Source of the DNA: a virus
Taxonomy: Duplodnaviria > Caudoviricetes
IMG/VR virus record: IMGVR_UViG_3300021387_000994
Span: 1-64,000 of that record
Reading direction: 5' to 3' (one strand)
Length of the DNA stretch: 64,000 bases
Part shown: positions 10,489-61,561 of the stretch, piece after piece
How positions within the stretch are numbered: the stretch's first letter is position 1
Layout of the letters: each line of letters opens with the position of its first letter
Program-made: the position numbers and the translations under genes
Notes under the pieces: generated by a model
The model's database searches: none
Told to the model about the DNA's origin: nothing
Seen by the model: the letters and a program-made list of their open reading frames with translations, nothing else

Positions 10489-12144
10489 ATGGATATTTTT
10501 AATAAATTGGATGTTTTAAATTACATAAATGAACATAATAAGGAACATGGTGGACATCTTACTACGGAGAATGGTTTTAAAAAACATTTTCCGGAATTGT
10601 ATGATGATTTTACAAAAACCTCTTTTCCATCATTTTTTGAAGGTTTTGATTTTAAACAGAAACTATGGCACTTTTTAAGAGATGACTACACACAACATAT
10701 ATGTTCATGTGGAAATCCTTTAAAGTTCAGAAGTTTTTGGTATGGATATAATATGTTTTGTCATATAAATTGTCCAAGTATGGTTGAACATCAGAAAGAA
10801 TGTATAAAAGATATTAATTCGAAAAGAACAGAGGATGAAAAGAAATCAATACAAGAAAAGGTAAAAGAGTCGTTTTTGGAAAGATATGGTGTTGAAAGAT
10901 ATTCACAAACTAAAGAATGGAAAGAAAAGACTTTAAACACAAACAAAGAAAAATATGGGTGTGAGTGGTTTTCAAAAACGGACACATATAAAGACTCTTT
11001 TAGAAAAAAGTCCATTGAAAAATATGGTGTTAGTAATCCTATGTTTTCTGATGTTGTGAGAAAAAAATGGAAAGACACAATAGATAAAAAGACATCCGAA
11101 TATTGGTATAACACATATCCGGATATTATTTCAATAAATGATAATGAGTTAACTTGTAGATGTTATGATAAAACTTGTGACAGATGTTCGGAAAAAAGTT
11201 ATGTAATAGATAAGAGTTTATTTTCCAATAGAGTTTGTTATGGAATAGATTTATGTACAGTAAGAAATCCATATAATCCTTTATTTTCAGGTGGTGAACG
11301 AGAATTATTTAATTTCATAAAATCAATATATGATGGTGTTATAATAGAGAATGACCGTTCTGTTTTAAAAGGAAAAGAACTCGACATATATATTCCAGAA
11401 TTAAATCTTGCTTTTGAATTTAATGGTGTATATTGGCATAATGAGTTTAATAAAGAAATAGCGTATCATCAGAAAAAATCATTGTCTTGTATGAAAAAAG
11501 GTATTCATCTTATTCATATATGGGAAGATGATTGGTTATATAAAAATGAAATAATAAAAGATTTTATAAAATCAAAGTTTGGTGTGTATGATGTAAAAAT
11601 AGGAGCTAGAAAGTGTGAAGTTAAAATTGTTCCAAATAATATTGCATATCGTTTTTTGATGAAAAATCATATTCAAGGTGGAGTAAAAAATGGAAAATCA
11701 ATAGGTTTATATTATTGTAACGAGATTGTGGAAGTATTGACATTTGGTAGTATGAGAAGAAATATGGGTGGGAAACAAGTTGATGGGCATTATGAAATTT
11801 ATAGAGTTTGTTCAAAGATTGGATACAATATACAAGGTGGTTTCTCAAAACTTCTCAACTATTTTGAGAATGTATACAATCCGATTGAAATAATAACATA
11901 TGCAAATTTAGATTATTCTGTTGGTAATGTATATGTTGTGAATGGTTTTTGTAAATGTGGTATTAGTAAACCGGTATATTCATGGGTTGTCGGAGGAATT
12001 CGTAGAAATCGTTCAAATTTTATGAAATCCAAACTTGATGAATGTAAAAAAAATCCGAAATTAACTGAATCTGACGTTATGCATAGGAGAGGTTTTTGGA
12101 AATGTTGGGATTCTGGGAAGATTAAGTTTAAAAAAAAGAGGTGA
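10489..12144 (+). mobile_element. putative homing endonuclease (KYGV repeats + PD-(D/E)XK/Vsr-like domain + Hef-like C-terminus)
   Basis: ERYGV/EKYGC/EKYGV repeats, ELDIYIPELNLAFEFNGVYWH, IHIWEDDW, NHIQG; flanked by terminators. Confidence 0.75.
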
Positions 12145-27912: not shown

Positions 27913-28004
27913 CTCTATTATTTTTTATTGTTTTCCTTTTTTTTAAAGATACTATTTTTTATTGAAAAAAAAAATAAAGTCGTGGAAAAATCCACGACTT
28001 TATT

Positions 28005-53480: not shown

Positions 53481-54485
53481 TAACAAATTCCATTTCAGAA
53501 TATAGAGTTAAACATTTTATCTCCGAGTAGAATAACCGATTCCATTTAAGAATATAGTATTAAAATACCAAAAGGTCTAATTTTATAAAAATCCAAATTA
53601 CGATTCCATTTCGGAATATAGGGTTAAATGTTGCAGACGGCGAAGTGATTGTAGCTTTCGTATTATGATTCCATTTCAGAACATAGGGTTAAACACCGCT
53701 TCGGTGGTTTTGGTTGAACTGTGTCCATTATGATTCCATAACAGAACATAGGATTAAATAATCATTCGTCCCACGTCGGACCATTGACGTAATTACGATT
53801 CCATTTCAGGTAATAAGGTTAAATAATACTTTCCGTTTTGTGGTATAATTATGGAACATTATGATTCCATTTCAGAATATAAGTTTAAACACTTGAAGAA
53901 TACGTCAAGAAAGCCGAGAAGAAATTATGATTCCATTTCAGAACATAGGGTTAAACACTATACTGTCTAAACATTGGCAATACCGTATAATTGTGATTCC
54001 ATTTCAGAACATAGGGTTAAACACTTGACTTACCATTCTTTCTTGCAACAAGTATATTGTGATTCCATTTCAGAACATAGGGTTAAACACTTCGTACCAG
54101 ATGGTTCAGATATATGTGTGCATTGTGATTCCATTTCAGAACATAGGGTTAAACACTACGATTACCTACATAGCTAACAAGACCTCCATTGTGATTCCAT
54201 TTCAGAACATAGGGTTAAACACTATACAATGTACTGAGAATACAACAGATATAATTGTGATTCCATTTCAGAACATAGGGTTAAACACTCAGAATCTGAA
54301 TCATTACGTGCAGATTTAATTGTGATTCCATTTCAGAACATAGGGTTAAACACTTGATTTGGTAACACAAAGACTTTTCCTGTATTGTGATTCCATTTCA
54401 GAACATAGGGTTAAACACTTCACAAATTTAAATCTCGTTGTCACACTTCATTGTGATTCCATTTCAGAACATAGGGTTAAACACT
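53481..54485. CRISPR. CRISPR array, 16 repeats (36 nt) / 15 spacers (mostly 29-30 nt)
   Basis: Repeat ATTGTGATTCCATTTCAGAACATAGGGTTAAACACT is perfect at 53990, 54056, 54122, 54188, 54254, 54319, 54384, 54450; degenerate copies at 53924, 53858, 53792, 53727, 53662, 53597, 53533, 53481; spacers unique. Confidence 0.97.
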
Positions 54486-54524
54486 ACGATTTATATATAA
54501 GTAAATATATCAATACTTTAACAA

Positions 54525-55694
54525 CTATTCATCAAAAATTTTTTCATATGTGTCTTTGTAGTCAGTATCATAAAGAATTGTATCAATTTCAACACTACAT
54601 ATACCACCCTCAAGACACCTACACACACCAGAATTTTCTTTTATTGCTTTAATCACTTTATCGTCGTCTGTTTCTATTATAATTGTTGCATCAAATACAA
54701 GTTTGTGTGTGTCAACACCTCTCTTATTTAATAGATAACATTTTCCACCAAGACCCTTATCACTATTCTGCATTTGTGGGTATATTTTTTTGTTTTTTCT
54801 AATAAAAAACAAACCATCACCATTACTTCGATTTGGAAAATCAACATTGAATATGGCACACATCCAAGGTCTGTAAAAGTTTCCAGAAACAGTTGTCAAC
54901 TCATTTTTCCAACCATCCTCGATACTTTTTACAAAATCTATTGTTCTCTCAATCAAGTCGTTATCATTTTTTAATTTCTCATATATTTCCTTACACATTT
55001 CTGAAAAAGTAAGATATTTTCTAACATCATCATACCCCAAAATTTCATTTATATATGAAAAAAGTCTTCTATATGTTTCAGTTTCTTTGTTCTCAAATGT
55101 ACGTAACAATTGGTCATAACTATAATAACCAAGCATCGTCTTCATCTTATTACCATTTTCATCTGGTTCTTCAAGTTCAAAAAAACTTTGTTTATATGAA
55201 ACATTACTGTTTATAGAAAGTTTTTCACTTTTAATAAGTTCCATATCGAGAAAAATCTCATTACCACTTTTAAATTCTGGTTTGTATATATGATAATACT
55301 CACCATCTGAACCAATGACTGTTTTGATGTAATTTGATGAATCAATAGGAGTGTTAAATTTTATATATGCTTTCTTTGCAAGATTTACACATATTTCTGG
55401 ATATGTTAAAATATCTTCATACAAATATCTATTACGTCTCTTTGGTTTTGTTGGTGTTGGGACACCGTTCATAAGACTTGTCATCAAGTTACAAACATCA
55501 GTCCAAGCAAGCGGTTTTCGAAAATTATGACCTCTTTTAATCCAACTCAACGTCACTTTTTCGTTTGGAAATTCTTTCTGCAAATCAGCAAGTATTTCTT
55601 TAATTACTGGATTTCTTCCATCGGTTTTTGGGTTCAACGACTCTTTCAATAGACCAGCGTTTTCAATATTCAAATATAGATAATACATAATCAC
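54525..55694 (-). CDS. cas5: Cas5fv-like (type I-F2-like) Cascade subunit
   Basis: Position after cas7; N-terminal beta strand and C-terminal ATIIIETDDDKVIKAIKENSGV...LEGG resemble the recalled Cas5fv C-terminus; large central helical insert; GTG start 55694 or ATG 55688. Confidence 0.6.
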   Translation of the reverse strand: MIMYYLYLNIENAGLLKESLNPKTDGRNPVIKEILADLQKEFPNEKVTLSWIKRGHNFRKPLAWTDVCNLMTSLMNGVPTPTKPKRRNRYLYEDILTYPEICVNLAKKAYIKFNTPIDSSNYIKTVIGSDGEYYHIYKPEFKSGNEIFLDMELIKSEKLSINSNVSYKQSFFELEEPDENGNKMKTMLGYYSYDQLLRTFENKETETYRRLFSYINEILGYDDVRKYLTFSEMCKEIYEKLKNDNDLIERTIDFVKSIEDGWKNELTTVSGNFYRPWMCAIFNVDFPNRSNGDGLFFIRKNKKIYPQMQNSDKGLGGKCYLLNKRGVDTHKLVFDATIIIETDDDKVIKAIKENSGVCRCLEGGICSVEIDTILYDTDYKDTYEKIFDE

Positions 55695-55703
55695 ACAAAT
55701 TTA

Positions 55704-55735
55704 GTCCTGTGATGATGGATTAAACATCACAGGAC
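55704..55735. promoter_or_regulatory. GC-rich hairpin between cas7 and cas5
   Basis: GTCCTGTGATG-N10-CATCACAGGAC, with no U-tract on the coding strand. Confidence 0.6.
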
Positions 55736-55745
55736 AAATTATTAT

Positions 55746-56837
55746 TTATTCATTATCATTTTTATTTTGAGAGTTTTTCCACTTCTCTCTCTCTTGTTGT
55801 TTCTTGTCCTTTTTTTCTTTTGACTTTTTATCCTTCTCTTCAATATGTTTCTTTCTATTTTTCCAACCTTCAAAAGAATCCTCAACATAAAATTGCTCAA
55901 TTTCAAAAGTCAAGTCATTTACATTATCTTTCGTAACAACAATTTCTTTACCTTTCGTACCACCCTCATATATCAATTCGATTTTAAGTTCATATGCTTC
56001 CACCTCTCCACGACGACGGTGAATATTTAATTCAAGAAGTCCATTTAAAGCTTTGTTTATAAGTGTGTTCACATACTCATCATCAAAAAGAAGACCATAT
56101 TCTGCACCATAACCTTCACCAAAAACATCTTGTGCATCTTTTGGTTTGAAAAACCCTACTTTATATGGTACTCTGCCATAACGCTTGAGAAATGCCTTTT
56201 CGAGAGAACTCCCACAAGGGATTCCACCATCTTCAATGTTTTTTTCATCAGAACCTTCAAAATACTCTTTATCTGCACCAAGTCTACCGGAATATAAATC
56301 AAGTGACAAAAATTGGGCTTCCTTAACACTAAAAAAACCATTCACATAATATTCCGTTTCTCCAAGTTGTTCTTCTGTAAATAAAGAATTACAGTCACGA
56401 TAACCAGATTTTGTGTCTTGGTCTACAATTATTTCAGATTTTGTTTCGATTGCATCATATGGTGTCAAACAAGATGCTTTTCCAAAACCATTTCCACTAG
56501 GTGCAGAACCATCAGCACACATATACCCCCTCATAAATCCCATAGGACTTGAGATAAAATTACAAGCATTTGTTATAAAACCCCAAGTAGAAGAATCACA
56601 TTTATTCGTACCTTTAAACAATGCATAACGAATACAACCAGATGAAATTTTGGCATGCTCATCATATGATACATTACCATACTCATCCATAACTTTCTGT
56701 TTTATTTTTTTAAGGCGGTTTATTGGTTTTGTACCTTTTAATTCACTGTCGTATACATTTTCGACACCATTATAATTCACACCACCTTGACCTTTTAATT
56801 TAAGATGAAACTTAAATCCTTTTAACTTATTATTCAT
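55746..56837 (-). CDS. cas7: Cas7fv-like (type I-F2) backbone subunit
   Basis: KGQGGVNYNG, ISSGCIRYALF, SPMGFMRGYM, GYRDCNSLF..LGETEY, QFLSLD, GLLFDDEYV, LNIHRRRG are co-linear with motifs I recall from Shewanella Cas7fv. Confidence 0.8.
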   Translation of the reverse strand: MNNKLKGFKFHLKLKGQGGVNYNGVENVYDSELKGTKPINRLKKIKQKVMDEYGNVSYDEHAKISSGCIRYALFKGTNKCDSSTWGFITNACNFISSPMGFMRGYMCADGSAPSGNGFGKASCLTPYDAIETKSEIIVDQDTKSGYRDCNSLFTEEQLGETEYYVNGFFSVKEAQFLSLDLYSGRLGADKEYFEGSDEKNIEDGGIPCGSSLEKAFLKRYGRVPYKVGFFKPKDAQDVFGEGYGAEYGLLFDDEYVNTLINKALNGLLELNIHRRRGEVEAYELKIELIYEGGTKGKEIVVTKDNVNDLTFEIEQFYVEDSFEGWKNRKKHIEEKDKKSKEKKDKKQQEREKWKNSQNKNDNE

Positions 56838-56856
56838 ATTTTACTAAAATTAAAAA

Positions 56857-57552
56857 TTATTCATAATCACATTTAAGACCAGCGAATCCAAAACCATATC
56901 CAGTGGATTGACCAAACCCCATTGATGTCAATTTTTCCCTAACATCACGCTTACCCTTTAGAATGATTTGAATACAAGATGTCTTTATACAATTTTCTTG
57001 TTTTGTTCCAGCCTTAACTTTACACCATTTAACTTTCCAATTTTCTTTATGAAATGGTTCTATTTTTATAGTCGCTGCATCACTCTCTGAGACACCACTT
57101 TTAATAAGTTTCTTAACCGTGTGTGAGCGAAGTATATCAATAAAATGCTCTTCATCTTCAAAAGTGATGTTTTTATCATCAATTTTTAGGCGAAGACAAT
57201 TTATTCTTACAATATCAAATCTTGGCATTGAAGTTTGCTTATACGTATCAAAATCCTCAAATATCATAGTTTGAACCATACCATTATCCCAAATATCCAT
57301 AATATTATTAGATAACGTTTTGATAAAATCATTATCATCAGAACTAACTATTATATGACCACCATTGGGATATTGAATCAACCCATTCTTATCTAAAACA
57401 CCACCCCTCATTTGTGAAATAGAATAATTTGAAGTACCATTGTGCCACTTATTATTATTTCCAAGGCATGTGTGAATATATCCAACAACATAATCTATCG
57501 TTGGTTTTGTAAATGGTTCACTGTTTGGTTTAAATTTTATTTTAAGTCTCAT
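56857..57552 (-). CDS. cas6: CRISPR-associated endoribonuclease Cas6
   Basis: MRLKIKF N-terminus, YSISQM, C-terminal G-rich loop GFGQSTGYGFG. Confidence 0.9.
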   Translation of the reverse strand: MRLKIKFKPNSEPFTKPTIDYVVGYIHTCLGNNNKWHNGTSNYSISQMRGGVLDKNGLIQYPNGGHIIVSSDDNDFIKTLSNNIMDIWDNGMVQTMIFEDFDTYKQTSMPRFDIVRINCLRLKIDDKNITFEDEEHFIDILRSHTVKKLIKSGVSESDAATIKIEPFHKENWKVKWCKVKAGTKQENCIKTSCIQIILKGKRDVREKLTSMGFGQSTGYGFGFAGLKCDYE

Positions 57553-57572
57553 ATAATAAACTTCATTTTTTA

Positions 57573-57603
57573 CAAAGATACTATTTTTTTTTCAAATATC
57601 AAA
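57573..57603 (-). promoter_or_regulatory. Bacteroidota housekeeping-type promoter for cas6-cas7-cas5
   Basis: TTTG-N19-TATCTTTG on the minus strand. Confidence 0.75.
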
Positions 57604-57610
57604 ATAAAAA

Positions 57611-60025
57611 TTAAGAAACTGGATAAAGACCAAGTTCATCATTATAATTGTGATTAAACAAAAGAGTTGGTCTGTCTGAACGATATGAAAGTTCTGATGA
57701 ACTTTTAATATCACACACACCAGTTATACCATAAACTCTTTTTAAAGTTCTTTTATCTGGAAAATCAAATGGAGTTTTGTCTAACATAAACATATATCTC
57801 TTTCTTGCTTCATCTGATGGGTCTTTTGATATATCATTTTCTCTCTTCAAAATGAAATCAGAACAAGCAATTGGTTCAAGAAAACCATCTAGTGTTTTAA
57901 CTGTTATGAAAACATTACCATTAGTACCACGATAAGTACAACCCCTTGAAACCATCTTGACACCATCATATTTTTTATTATTTGAACTACCAACAAGAGT
58001 TATATTCATAAGACCATCCATACCGTTGTTATAAAGGTTTGTATAATATCTAACGAATATACTCTCATTATCTTTATAAAAATTATGATATAACTCATAA
58101 AATTTATTTTTAGTGATTGTTTTTCCTTCAAGTGATTTCAAAATACCAATCCAATTTTTGTAAAGTTTAACAATATCAGAATCATTTGTTTTTATTGAAG
58201 GATATGTCCAAGGTTCGTATCTATACATAATATATCTCAAACCTTCTTCACTTAAATCATAAAAAACATTATAATCCACCTCACCATATTCATTAAATCT
58301 ACTGAGACGACCACAAGCGTGTTGAATTGTATCATCCGGTAAAATACAAAAGTCATTCATAGATTTTGCCGAAATATCCCAACCAGTACCTATCAAACTT
58401 GTAGACACAACGGCTTTCTTATCTTTTGTTGATTCTTTACCATACATATCAAATACTTCACTACTAATATCTTTACGACGATTTTCACGAAATATAGAAT
58501 GTACTAAAATTTTTGGATTTTCTGCTTTCAAATATATATCTCGTGCATCATCGACAGTTTTACATATAGTAAAACTATTTTGTTTAACAAGTTCAATAGG
58601 AATATTACCATCAGAACAATCGTATGTTTTAATGTTTATTTTAACATCACCTGAGTGTATTGGTATATCATTGAAAAAATTTATTTTATCGGAATCACCA
58701 AACCAAAGATTCTTAAAATCTGGTGCAGTGGCACTCATAAGAAGACATTTTCCCTTTGTGTAATGCATAATATTTAACATAGAATTTATAAATGCTGGAA
58801 ACATAGGGTGTCCACATCTAAAATCTTGATATTCATCAAATATAACATTTCCAAAATAATTATAAACAAGAAATTTCGAAAAGTTATTCTTTGAATTTCT
58901 ATTAAGATAATTATCTATATTTGTAATAATAATATCACAATTTTCAAGTCTGCAATCTTTATGATTTGAGTCCTTTATCTCCCCTGTTGTGAAAGAACAA
59001 ACTTTTATAATATCATTGAGACCCATTTTCTCAAGTTCACGAATAACACTTTTATATGTAGATTCTGTTAAAGAATTTGTCGGAAGAACCCATAAACCCT
59101 TTTCTTTATTTTCAATTAGCCATAAAATTGCCATAAGTGTTTTTCCAAAACCAGCCGATGCTGTTAAAACATTTACACGAACCTTATTATCAACAATCTT
59201 TTTAATTATTTCTAATTGGGTATCAAGTCTTTTTGTGTCATATCTTGACAAATCAGTATCTCTTTTGCAAAAATTAGATTTTTTTGAATCTAAAAATGAA
59301 GAGTAAACACAACTTGATGCTGTACGGTCAGACCAATTTAAGATTGCATGATTTATTGATTGATATGAACTTAATTCAACCTCTTCTCTTGTTTCCTTTA
59401 TTTTTATATCTGGTCTAAATTTAACACAACTAAAAAGACACTCATCACAAACCTTTCTATCATAAAAAAATTTTTTATCAAGAATCATTCTATAATTATC
59501 ATTATGAGATAAATCTGTACCATATTTTAAATCAACATATTCAATCATATACATATAAAAATTCTTCATATCTTCAAATGTGTCTGGTTCATCCTCAAAA
59601 ATACTCTTCATAATATCCTTTGAGGATTTATTTTTATCAGAACGAACAATATGATGAAACAATATGGGTGAAGTAATGTCACTCATAGAGTATACACGAT
59701 TCAAACAAGATACGGTAAATGCCCAAGAAATTGTGTTATGATATTCCTTTGTGTTATCACAACCATCATATTTTATAGACTCAAGACTATCTTCGTCAAG
59801 TTCACTTTTTTCTTCAATAAATTTTTGAAAACTTTTTGTAAACTTTCCGATGTCGTGCAATATAATTGTTAAGGCGATATGTTCTTTAAACTCCTTTGTA
59901 CACTTTGATTCTTCCATCAAATCTATAAAAGACATACCCAATTCAATAACATCTTTCGTATGTTCCACAATGGTTTTTCCACCATACTTTTTACTTTTTG
60001 CAAATTTATTCTCAAACATATACAT
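57611..60025 (-). CDS. cas3: Cas3 HD nuclease-helicase (no Cas2 fusion)
   Basis: EHT..V, LHDIGK, YHN, FHH, SDRTASS HD motifs; ASAGFGKT, DEYQ, MSAT, GWDIS, QHACGRLSR helicase motifs. Confidence 0.92.
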   Translation of the reverse strand: MYMFENKFAKSKKYGGKTIVEHTKDVIELGMSFIDLMEESKCTKEFKEHIALTIILHDIGKFTKSFQKFIEEKSELDEDSLESIKYDGCDNTKEYHNTISWAFTVSCLNRVYSMSDITSPILFHHIVRSDKNKSSKDIMKSIFEDEPDTFEDMKNFYMYMIEYVDLKYGTDLSHNDNYRMILDKKFFYDRKVCDECLFSCVKFRPDIKIKETREEVELSSYQSINHAILNWSDRTASSCVYSSFLDSKKSNFCKRDTDLSRYDTKRLDTQLEIIKKIVDNKVRVNVLTASAGFGKTLMAILWLIENKEKGLWVLPTNSLTESTYKSVIRELEKMGLNDIIKVCSFTTGEIKDSNHKDCRLENCDIIITNIDNYLNRNSKNNFSKFLVYNYFGNVIFDEYQDFRCGHPMFPAFINSMLNIMHYTKGKCLLMSATAPDFKNLWFGDSDKINFFNDIPIHSGDVKINIKTYDCSDGNIPIELVKQNSFTICKTVDDARDIYLKAENPKILVHSIFRENRRKDISSEVFDMYGKESTKDKKAVVSTSLIGTGWDISAKSMNDFCILPDDTIQHACGRLSRFNEYGEVDYNVFYDLSEEGLRYIMYRYEPWTYPSIKTNDSDIVKLYKNWIGILKSLEGKTITKNKFYELYHNFYKDNESIFVRYYTNLYNNGMDGLMNITLVGSSNNKKYDGVKMVSRGCTYRGTNGNVFITVKTLDGFLEPIACSDFILKRENDISKDPSDEARKRYMFMLDKTPFDFPDKRTLKRVYGITGVCDIKSSSELSYRSDRPTLLFNHNYNDELGLYPVS

Positions 60026-60036
60026 ATATTTTTTTG

Positions 60037-60067
60037 CAAAGATACTATTTTTTCACCAATAAACAAA
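60037..60067 (-). promoter_or_regulatory. Bacteroidota housekeeping-type promoter for cas3
   Basis: TTTG-N19-TATCTTTGCA on the minus strand, just downstream of the terminator at 60070-60101. Confidence 0.78.
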
Positions 60068-60102
60068 AAAAAAATGAACGGAAATTTTTCCGTTCATTTT
60101 TA

Positions 60103-60793: not shown

Positions 60794-61561
60794 ATGTTAG
60801 AAATTAATAAAATATATAACCAAGATTGTCTTGAAGGTATGAAAGAGATAGATGACAAGTCAATCGACTGCATCATCTGTGATTTACCTTATGAGGTTCT
60901 CAATAAATCGAATGAAAACGCCAAATGGGACGTTGTGATACCTTTTGACAAACTATGGGAACAATACAACAGAATAATCAAGGACAACGGTGCTATATTA
61001 CTTTTTGGACAAGGTATGTTCACTGCACAGTTGATGATGAGTAATTCTTCAATGTGGAGGTATAATCTTATATGGAAAAAAGGAAACCGTTCCACAGGTT
61101 TCTTGAATGCAAAAAGGATGCCTCTTCGTAACCACGAAGACATTGTTGTATTCTACAAGAAACTTCCAACATATAATCCACAGAAGGTCATTGGTGCAAA
61201 GAACCACTCTCGTGGTAATGTAAAAAAACAGAAAAACCAATGCTATGGTAAATTTGATGCTTCAGTCACCCAAGATGATTTTTCTGGAATGAAATATCCG
61301 ACGAGTATAATAGATGTTGAGAAAGAACATTGTAAGACATTCCACCCGACACAGAAACCGGTTGAACTTATATCATACTTGATAAAGACTTATACAAATG
61401 AAGGAGACTTAGTTCTAGACAATTGCATTGGAAGTGGAACGACTGCAATCTCTTGTATAAAAGAAAATAGAAATTTTATCGGATTTGAAACAAACGAAGA
61501 ATATTTCGAGAAAGCAAGTAAAAGAATAAATGATGAAAAATCAATAATAAAATTGTTTTAA
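60794..61561 (+). CDS. N4-C/N6-A DNA methyltransferase (beta class), paralog of 49206..49952
   Basis: ICDLPY, HPTQKP, VLDNCIGSGTT. Confidence 0.9.
   Translation: MLEINKIYNQDCLEGMKEIDDKSIDCIICDLPYEVLNKSNENAKWDVVIPFDKLWEQYNRIIKDNGAILLFGQGMFTAQLMMSNSSMWRYNLIWKKGNRSTGFLNAKRMPLRNHEDIVVFYKKLPTYNPQKVIGAKNHSRGNVKKQKNQCYGKFDASVTQDDFSGMKYPTSIIDVEKEHCKTFHPTQKPVELISYLIKTYTNEGDLVLDNCIGSGTTAISCIKENRNFIGFETNEEYFEKASKRINDEKSIIKLF

Follow-up and report, generated by a model that had tools for sequence, protein, structure and literature searches.

A four-gene type I CRISPR-Cas locus distantly related to type I-F2 and recurrent on huge phages

CRISPR-Cas systems of type I-F2 lack both Cas8 and Cas11 and carry a Cas6f (Csy4) endoribonuclease, a Cas2-Cas3 fusion, Cas1f, and arrays of 27–28-nt hairpin repeats with 32-nt spacers. 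In the solved I-F2 structure, Cas5 alone reads the protospacer-adjacent motif (PAM) by means of a helical domain, and Cas7 and Cas5 together recruit Cas3 (PMC12956352). This subtype and the CRISPR-Cas systems of huge phages that lack adaptation genes are both already known (PMC4937334, PMC12956352, PMC7162821). Here we describe a CRISPR-Cas locus at positions 53481–60067 of IMGVR_UViG_3300021387_000994, a linear virus record of 133,579 bp and 33% G+C, of which the first 64 kb form the window analysed. The locus holds four cas genes and a CRISPR array; it is a rebuilt, distant relative of type I-F2, the smallest known type I system, and the family to which it belongs has members on many huge-phage contigs. 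We consider it likely to be a phage-borne, interference-only type I system whose effector is a Cascade of I-F2 design without Cas8 and Cas11. The I-F2 references used were the Shewanella putrefaciens CN-32 system (PDB 5O6U, 5O7H, 9G44) and, as the canonical locus, that of Acinetobacter lwoffii plasmid NZ_CP046295.1 (L012).

The type I-F1 system of Vibrio phage ICP1 is, like the present one, a phage-encoded, compact system of the type I-F lineage that uses Cas3 for interference (PMC10161043). ICP1, however, keeps Cas8f (Csy1), Cas6f, a Cas2/3 fusion and Cas1, so that it adapts by itself; its genome is about 125 kb, whereas the CheckV completeness of the present record (39%) implies a full phage genome of roughly 340 kb, and it has a known target, PLE (PMC10161043). 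The I-C variant described by Al-Shayeb et al. in 2020 is likewise carried by huge phages and, like the present fragment, is without Cas1, Cas2 and Cas4 (PMC7162821); both systems may act in phage-phage or phage-host conflicts. That variant is derived from type I-C, has no Cas6, its RNA being processed by Cas5d, and has another helicase in place of Cas3 (PMC7162821), in contrast to the present I-F2-derived system with its true HD-Cas3 and its Cas6. With type I-B the locus shares a Cas6b-type Cas6, unstructured repeats and a stand-alone HD-helicase Cas3, but no Cas8b, Cas7b, Cas5b or cas4-cas1-cas2 module was found in it, and its Cas7 is of the I-F lineage. Assignment to type IV or to a transposon-borne Cascade was ruled out by the presence of an HD-Cas3.

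All parts of the locus lie on the minus strand, in the order terminator, promoter-like box, cas3, second box, cas6, cas7, a gene for a 389-aa Cas5-like protein, and array. The genes are closely packed, with 58 nt between cas3 and cas6, 19 nt between cas6 and cas7, 51 nt between cas7 and the 389-aa gene, and ~40 nt between the latter and the array; the intergenic gaps of 19–58 nt therefore leave no room in the locus for a large subunit, Cas8, Cas11 or any other subunit. The features of a type I system are present, namely the signature HD nuclease and superfamily 2 (SF2) helicase in Cas3 (from profiles and motifs), and genes for Cas5-like, Cas7 and Cas6 proteins (Cas5-like by fold and predicted complex) beside an array of 16 repeats. 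A first-pass annotation of the DNA, made from its letters, had described the same single-strand cas3-cas6-cas7-cas5-array arrangement with no space for a large subunit, and this description was borne out.

At least 11 further metagenomic loci hold the same four genes with an array, arranged in three different orders and on contigs of up to 494 kb; these relatives were collected through searches with Cas7, the 389-aa protein and Cas3. The order cas3-cas6-cas7-cas5-array occurs in this phage (also on a 250-kb contig, NODE_28 of ERZ12302816, 250,164 bp), on the contig encoding P0002 and in L009, while cas6-cas7-cas5-array-cas3 occurs in L001 (383 kb, in ERZ932315), L006, L008, L010 and L024. The I-F2 order, cas3-cas7-cas5-cas6 followed by the array, is kept in the more distant phage relatives L022 (494 kb) and L023 (339 kb, an NCBI assembly). 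Across seven loci the four proteins co-diverge at full length (26–50% identity), and each locus has flanks of its own, indicating that the module travels as a cassette of four genes. With Cas3 as the query, 155 clusters were obtained at E ≤1e-8, many of them on contigs of 300–494 kb, of which three were inspected, and Cas3 was present in every complete related locus examined. A Cas7 pattern scan found three relatives in Joint Genome Institute (JGI) metagenomes and none in IMG/VR or the species genomes, and the locus DNA had no match among GenBank phages. This setting differs from that of I-F2, which resides on proteobacterial chromosomes or plasmids. The first-pass annotation had proposed a chimeric, minimal and possibly unnamed system of about 5.5 kb; the mixed parts and the four genes stand, but the system is not a singular chimera, since it belongs to a widespread huge-phage family. 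No paper naming this architecture was found in a partial coverage of the literature that did not include Al-Shayeb 2022 or a Makarova 2025 figure on an I-F variant “intermediate between I-F1 and I-F2”. Among the neighbours of the related modules, two LRR_5/DUF7666 proteins are encoded directly upstream of cas3 in L009 (173–2177), and an IS605 OrfB/TnpB (Cas12f-like) gene lies ~1.5 kb downstream of cas6 in L023 (12443–13651, minus strand), just past the gap where the array would be.

The cas7 gene (55746–56837, minus strand) encodes a 363-aa protein that is, judged by sequence comparison, a clear Cas7fv homologue and the putative backbone subunit. It matches NCBIfam NF040577 (Cas7fv) at 1.5e-22 (80.3 bits), and its sole PADLOC matches are the Cas7fv (5e-17) and Cas7f (7e-12) profiles. 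The solved Shewanella Cas7fv (5O6U chain C) was matched at 5e-10, and hhalign aligned a profile of the 8-member Cas7 family with the Acinetobacter lwoffii plasmid Cas7fv over 265 columns at 99.1% probability (E 1.3e-18). A recent Cas7fv-like Pfam entry, PF28157, already matches Cas7 proteins of this phage family. The homologous Cas7 backbone is thus shared with I-F2, and the Cas7fv-likeness first proposed from sequence motifs is upheld by each of the NCBIfam, PADLOC, 5O6U and hhalign comparisons. The phage family differs from canonical Cas7fv (315–329 aa) in a common Lys/Glu-rich C-terminal tail, which in this Cas7 spans about residues 330–363 (window 55746–55850); as a speculative role, the tail might help to hold the displaced DNA strand where there is no Cas11.

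The gene between cas7 and the array (54525–55694, minus strand) encodes a protein of 389 aa (387 aa counted from the ATG), for which an exhaustive HMMER search found 21 relatives, all of 300–406 aa. The protein had no match in Pfam, NCBIfam, PADLOC or a sequence profile search of the PDB. An AlphaFold 2 model built on the alignment of its relatives (pLDDT 82.5) shows a single RNA recognition motif (RRM) core to which the N- and C-terminal regions both contribute; a beta-rich segment and six helices, at about residues 110–320, interrupt it. As modelled, it is a Cas5-sized RAMP (repeat-associated mysterious protein) with a helical insert, placed at about residues 190–285; the third subunit of I-F2 is of the same make. 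The two best Foldseek matches in the PDB are the Cas5fv chains 5O6U_F and 9G44_B, both weak (E 0.02–0.07). In VIA-align the model scored Z 6.4 with Cmr3 (128 aa, 3.7 A root-mean-square deviation) and Z 6.0 with Cas5f2 (223 aa, 10.5 A), followed by Cas5-HNH and a type I-A Cascade chain. Across the structure searches the Cas5fv chains scored Z 5.4–6.0. A wide structure search independent of Foldseek returned generic RRMs at Z 5–6; all nine alignments of at least 120 aa were to chains of CRISPR effector complexes, one of them Cas5fv (5O6U_F). The other eight chains (types I-A, I-B CRISPR-associated transposon, I-C, I-E, I-E-HNH and III-B) we take, from entry titles, to be Cas5-family subunits. 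An Atlas shape search with the model was led by Cas5b and Cas5p clusters, while the Atlas feature search gave no useful match, the Atlas's own model of the protein being poor. These structural scores are individually not decisive, yet Cas5-family proteins come first in three structure libraries (Z of about 6) and, at the level of models, the searches point in the same direction. A fusion of Cas8 and Cas5 was ruled out as the identity of this protein by its single RRM core and its length of only 389 aa.

The 389-aa protein is also predicted to bind Cas7. The modelled complex reached an ipSAE of 0.73 (runs 0.72–0.74) against 0.00 for the best control, where the mark used is attained by 58 of 80 solved complexes and by 2 of 110 mismatched pairs; the runs agreed in at least 66% of contacts and the partner had a pLDDT of at least 72. 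In this prediction the RRM core forms the interface with Cas7 and the helical insert is left free. A Cas5fv-Cas7fv complex has already been solved, so the ipSAE pass may reflect likeness to that complex, which is the very point at issue. The N-terminal motif of the family has the consensus NPIP.T.LSNML..L.G, and the equivalent stretch aligns with the Acinetobacter Cas5fv in BLASTP; the motif resembles the helix-1 motif of Cas5 proteins, which we treat as a lead only. The family profile matched the proteins in the Cas5 position of the I-F2-ordered loci L022 and L023 at 98.1% and 98.6% probability, respectively. We propose that the 389-aa protein is a Cas5fv counterpart, on the grounds of modelled fold, predicted Cas7 binding and gene position, not of sequence, and that it stands in for both Cas5 and the large subunit.

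The cas6 gene (56857–57552, minus strand) encodes a 231-aa protein with the two RRMs of a Cas6 endoribonuclease. It matches the Cas6b profile end to end (2.6e-21) as well as TIGR01877, its C-terminus forms the glycine-rich loop GFGQSTGYGFGFAG, and BLASTP found no similarity to Cas6f of the Acinetobacter lwoffii plasmid. By these profile matches the protein is a canonical, Cas6b-like G-loop enzyme, unlike the Cas6f/Csy4 of I-F2, in keeping with the earlier reading of a non-Csy4 Cas6.

The cas3 gene (57611–60025, minus strand) encodes 804 aa (802 aa from the start used by gene callers, 2 codons later), comprising an HD nuclease, an SF2 helicase and a Cas3 C-terminal domain. It matches TIGR01587 (5e-19), TIGR01596 (5e-12) and the Pfam domains Cas3_HD, DEAD and Cas3-like_C_2, and scores about equally on the Cas3b (9.4e-35) and Cas3fv (9.5e-30) profiles. 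Its closest solved relative is the I-F2 Cas3 of 9G44 (1.4e-12). The HD domain comes first in the protein; the Cas3fv profile is aligned from its position 135 onwards, and the 25% identity with the Acinetobacter Cas2-3 over 420 residues starts at residue 397 of that protein. There is consequently no Cas2 part, and Cas3 is unfused, as first proposed, which separates it from the Cas2-Cas3 fusion of I-F2. The catalytic motifs are intact (H22, H57-D58, H96, H125, ASAGFGKT, DEYQ, SAT and QxxGRxxR), which also agrees with the first-pass annotation, and the HD residues, Walker A, DEY, SAT and QxxGRxxR are invariant across six loci whose Cas3 proteins share 27–38% overall identity.

These motifs bear on whether the system degrades what it binds. 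It might instead work by RNA-guided repression or recruitment, in the manner of type IV or transposon-borne Cascades, and use Cas3 chiefly for its helicase activity. In huge phages, CRISPR systems with other helicases or with no nuclease have been recorded (PMC7162821), and the precomputed Pfam matches of the Cas3 of a remote relative, L010, comprise helicase domains only. The HD motif residues, however, are invariant both here and in L010, Cas3 HD profiles match, and no complete locus examined lacks Cas3; we regard binding without degradation as very improbable.

The CRISPR array (53481–54484, minus strand) consists of 16 repeats with the consensus GTGTTTAACCCTATGTTCTGAAATGGAATCACAAT, 14 spacers and one 17-nt remnant. 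Each repeat measures 35 nt, or 36 nt on counting a nearly constant A in front of it, which is present at all of the first 11 copies; the spacers are 29–31 nt and the period is 65–66 nt. The repeat RNA, with a folding energy of −2.2 to 0 kcal/mol, is no more stably folded than shuffled sequence, and an unstructured repeat suits a canonical Cas6, not Csy4. In line with the first-pass account of 36-nt repeats unlike those of I-F2, the repeats are 35–36 nt long and form no 28-nt hairpins. The 8 repeats at the cas end share one sequence and the distal ones have decayed, with 1–12 mismatches, so that growth of the array was polar, from the cas end. When 68 repeats of four related arrays are compared, conservation falls on CTAT (11–14), AA (22–23), GAATCA (26–31) and AA (33–34); the conserved 3' end, the prospective 5' handle of the CRISPR RNA (crRNA), is thus under constraint even where other positions drift. 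In the arrays of L006 (12220–13178) and L008 (5826–6915), the repeats are just 64–82% identical to one another, with a strict 65–67-nt period and the GAATCA..AA 3' block retained, and these look like old arrays drifting without homogenisation.

All 15 spacers, run with blastn-short against the 133.6-kb record and the fetched relative loci, gave self matches only; the array gave chance-level matches alone against 50,697 GenBank phages (E ≥0.9); and five spacers searched against IMG/VR with every sixth base free gave 0 matches. The repeat core, searched across one genome per species for 185,579 species, had one match, inside an open reading frame (ORF) without an array, and thus no bacterial array with this repeat was found among them. 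No Rfam CRISPR-DR family matched the array.

Several of the results weigh against an active effector of I-F2 descent. The Cas7 score of 80.3 bits is far under the curated NF040577 cut-off of 200 bits, which places the protein outside the canonical I-F2 family. A sequence-level link between the 389-aa protein and Cas5fv was not found: no NCBIfam family covers any of the 21 members, hhalign of the family profile against the Acinetobacter Cas5fv gave no match, and the structural scores of Z 5–6.4 are below the level that the tool's own notes trust alone. The profile and structure checks recommended at the outset for the 363-aa and 389-aa proteins accordingly divide, with Cas7fv recovered by profile and an RRM, Cas5-like fold by model, but with no match of the 389-aa sequence to Cas5fv. 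Protospacers turned up neither in the record nor in GenBank phages, nor in the IMG/VR searches, which makes the use against competing phages or mobile elements put forward in the first-pass annotation a conjecture; three assemblies of this phage carry the same array, with no sign of ongoing spacer gain. Finally, the searches for cas1, cas2 and cas8 cover 133.6 kb, or about 39% of the genome.

Within that record no match was found to the Cas1 profile PF01867, to two Cas2 family profiles, to the Cas4 and Csy1 profiles, or to the Cas8b profile PF09484, and no cas1, cas2, cas4 or cas8 was found in any inspected related locus. The claim that Cas8, Cas11, Cas1 and Cas2 are missing thus holds at the locus, where there is no gap space for them, and for the Cas1, Cas2 and Cas8 profiles throughout the record, but it does not extend to the whole genome. 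A host gene, or one in the 60% of the genome that the record leaves unsampled, could accordingly supply a large subunit, in which case an ordinary Cas8-containing Cascade, I-B-like or I-F1-like, would be served by a split locus. The I-B-like style of Cas6 and of the repeats is in line with this, as is the incompleteness of the record. On the other hand, 12 loci with quite different flanks all keep the four cas genes and no others, with no candidate for cas8 in any, the Cas7 comes from the sole lineage known to function without Cas8, the third subunit bears a large insert as Cas5fv does, and neither Csy1 nor Cas8b profiles find a match in 133.6 kb. A split locus therefore appears very improbable to us. 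The system would work in the manner of I-F2 but departs from that subtype in four defining features, namely Cas6f, the fusion of Cas2 with Cas3, Cas1f and an array geometry of 28/32 nt. With no Cas1 or Cas2 found on the phage fragment, spacer acquisition would depend on machinery encoded outside it in the same genome or on a host enzyme supplied in trans, or would not take place.

The missing adaptation genes, together with the degenerate distal repeats, the divergence of the repeats within L006 and L008, the identical arrays in three assemblies and the lack of any spacer target, would also fit a decaying or domesticated remnant, with cas genes that drift or are kept for another role and an array that is a fossil without interference. 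Such a history is hard to square with four intact ORFs that co-diverge at full length down to 26% identity, or with the invariance of the Cas3 HD and helicase residues in six loci. The handle-forming positions GAATCA, AA and CTAT are at least 90% conserved even in the degenerate arrays, and the 8 identical cas-proximal repeats point to fairly recent additions. We hold a remnant to be very unlikely, if slightly less so than the other alternatives, and favour the interference-competent, Cas8-less Cascade.

For such a Cascade the following sequence of events is envisaged. The array would be transcribed from the minus strand, probably along with cas6, cas7 and the cas5-like gene, and the canonical Cas6 would cut the unstructured 35–36-nt repeats to leave a conserved 5' handle of ~8 nt, AUCACAAU. 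The crRNA would then be bound by one Cas5-like protein at the handle, by ~5–6 copies of the Cas7fv-like protein along the 30–31-nt spacer, and by Cas6 at the 3' end. Reading the PAM and wedging the duplex open, the job of Cas8 in other type I systems, may fall to the helical insert of the Cas5-like protein. Cas7 and Cas5 could directly bring the stand-alone Cas3 to the R-loop, where it would shred the target with its HD nuclease and helicase.

Upstream of cas3, a strong intrinsic terminator (60070–60101, minus strand; a 14-bp stem and then a run of T) ends the preceding transcription unit and sets cas3 apart from it. A 24-nt box, AAAAAATAGTATCTTTG[T/C]AAAAAA, lies just upstream of both cas3 and cas6 and forms the motif TTTG-N19-TAnnTTTG. 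The putative cas3 promoter (60037–60067, minus strand) reads TTTG-N19-TATCTTTG and ends 11 nt before the ATG; the putative promoter of the cas6-cas7-cas5-array operon (57573–57603, minus strand) has the same form, TTTG-N19-TATCTTTG, and lies 20 nt before the ATG. Near copies of the 24-nt box occur at 27937–27960 in the window and at 120467–120490 in the full record, and among the 115 ORFs of the record only cas3 and cas6 have the full motif within 80 nt upstream. The pattern TTTG-N19-TAnnTTTG matches the Bacteroidota −33/−7 promoter consensus. The pair of boxes may point to early transcription by the polymerase of a Bacteroidota host, or to the locus having been captured recently from a host of that kind.

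PHROG matches, namely a tail sheath, portal, prohead protease and major head protein, confirm that the locus sits in a tailed phage. An HNH/homing-endonuclease gene of 551 aa (10489–12144, plus strand; phrog_3339, 5e-109) is placed in the structural module, between the tail-sheath gene and a 2029-aa ORF. An N6_N4_Mtase gene (60794–61561, plus strand) adjoins the CRISPR locus and is one of several DNA methyltransferase genes in the record, at most four ORFs of which match any one PADLOC methyltransferase family. In a PADLOC scan of 98 other ORFs of the record, the best 25 matches were to methyltransferase families alone, so that matches to other Cas proteins could rank below them. The multiple methyltransferase genes are consistent with heavy self-modification of the phage DNA.

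Taken jointly, these observations allow a broader and distinctly tentative reading. The locus may represent an unnamed, subtype-level branch of type I almost confined to huge phages, in which a Cas7/Cas5 backbone of I-F2 type has been joined to a canonical Cas6 and a free Cas3. Its host-type promoters would be active straight after infection, and its spacers would be obtained through borrowed host Cas1-Cas2 of another type, which the 36/30-nt array geometry fits. With a size of ~5.5 kb, it would rank with the smallest Cascade-Cas3 interference modules that are self-sufficient.

The family shows that the Cas8-less design is not limited to a few proteobacteria but is successful, old and diversified on huge phages, and that it can go together with another crRNA-processing enzyme and another type of repeat. 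The family bears on the shuffling of class 1 modules, on how PAM reading and Cas3 recruitment are achieved without a large subunit, and on how phages may run CRISPR systems without spacer-capture genes. The four-gene set of ~5.5 kb may suffice for Cas3-based long-range deletion, as the I-F2 literature argues for the Shewanella system, and would be of interest for genome engineering.

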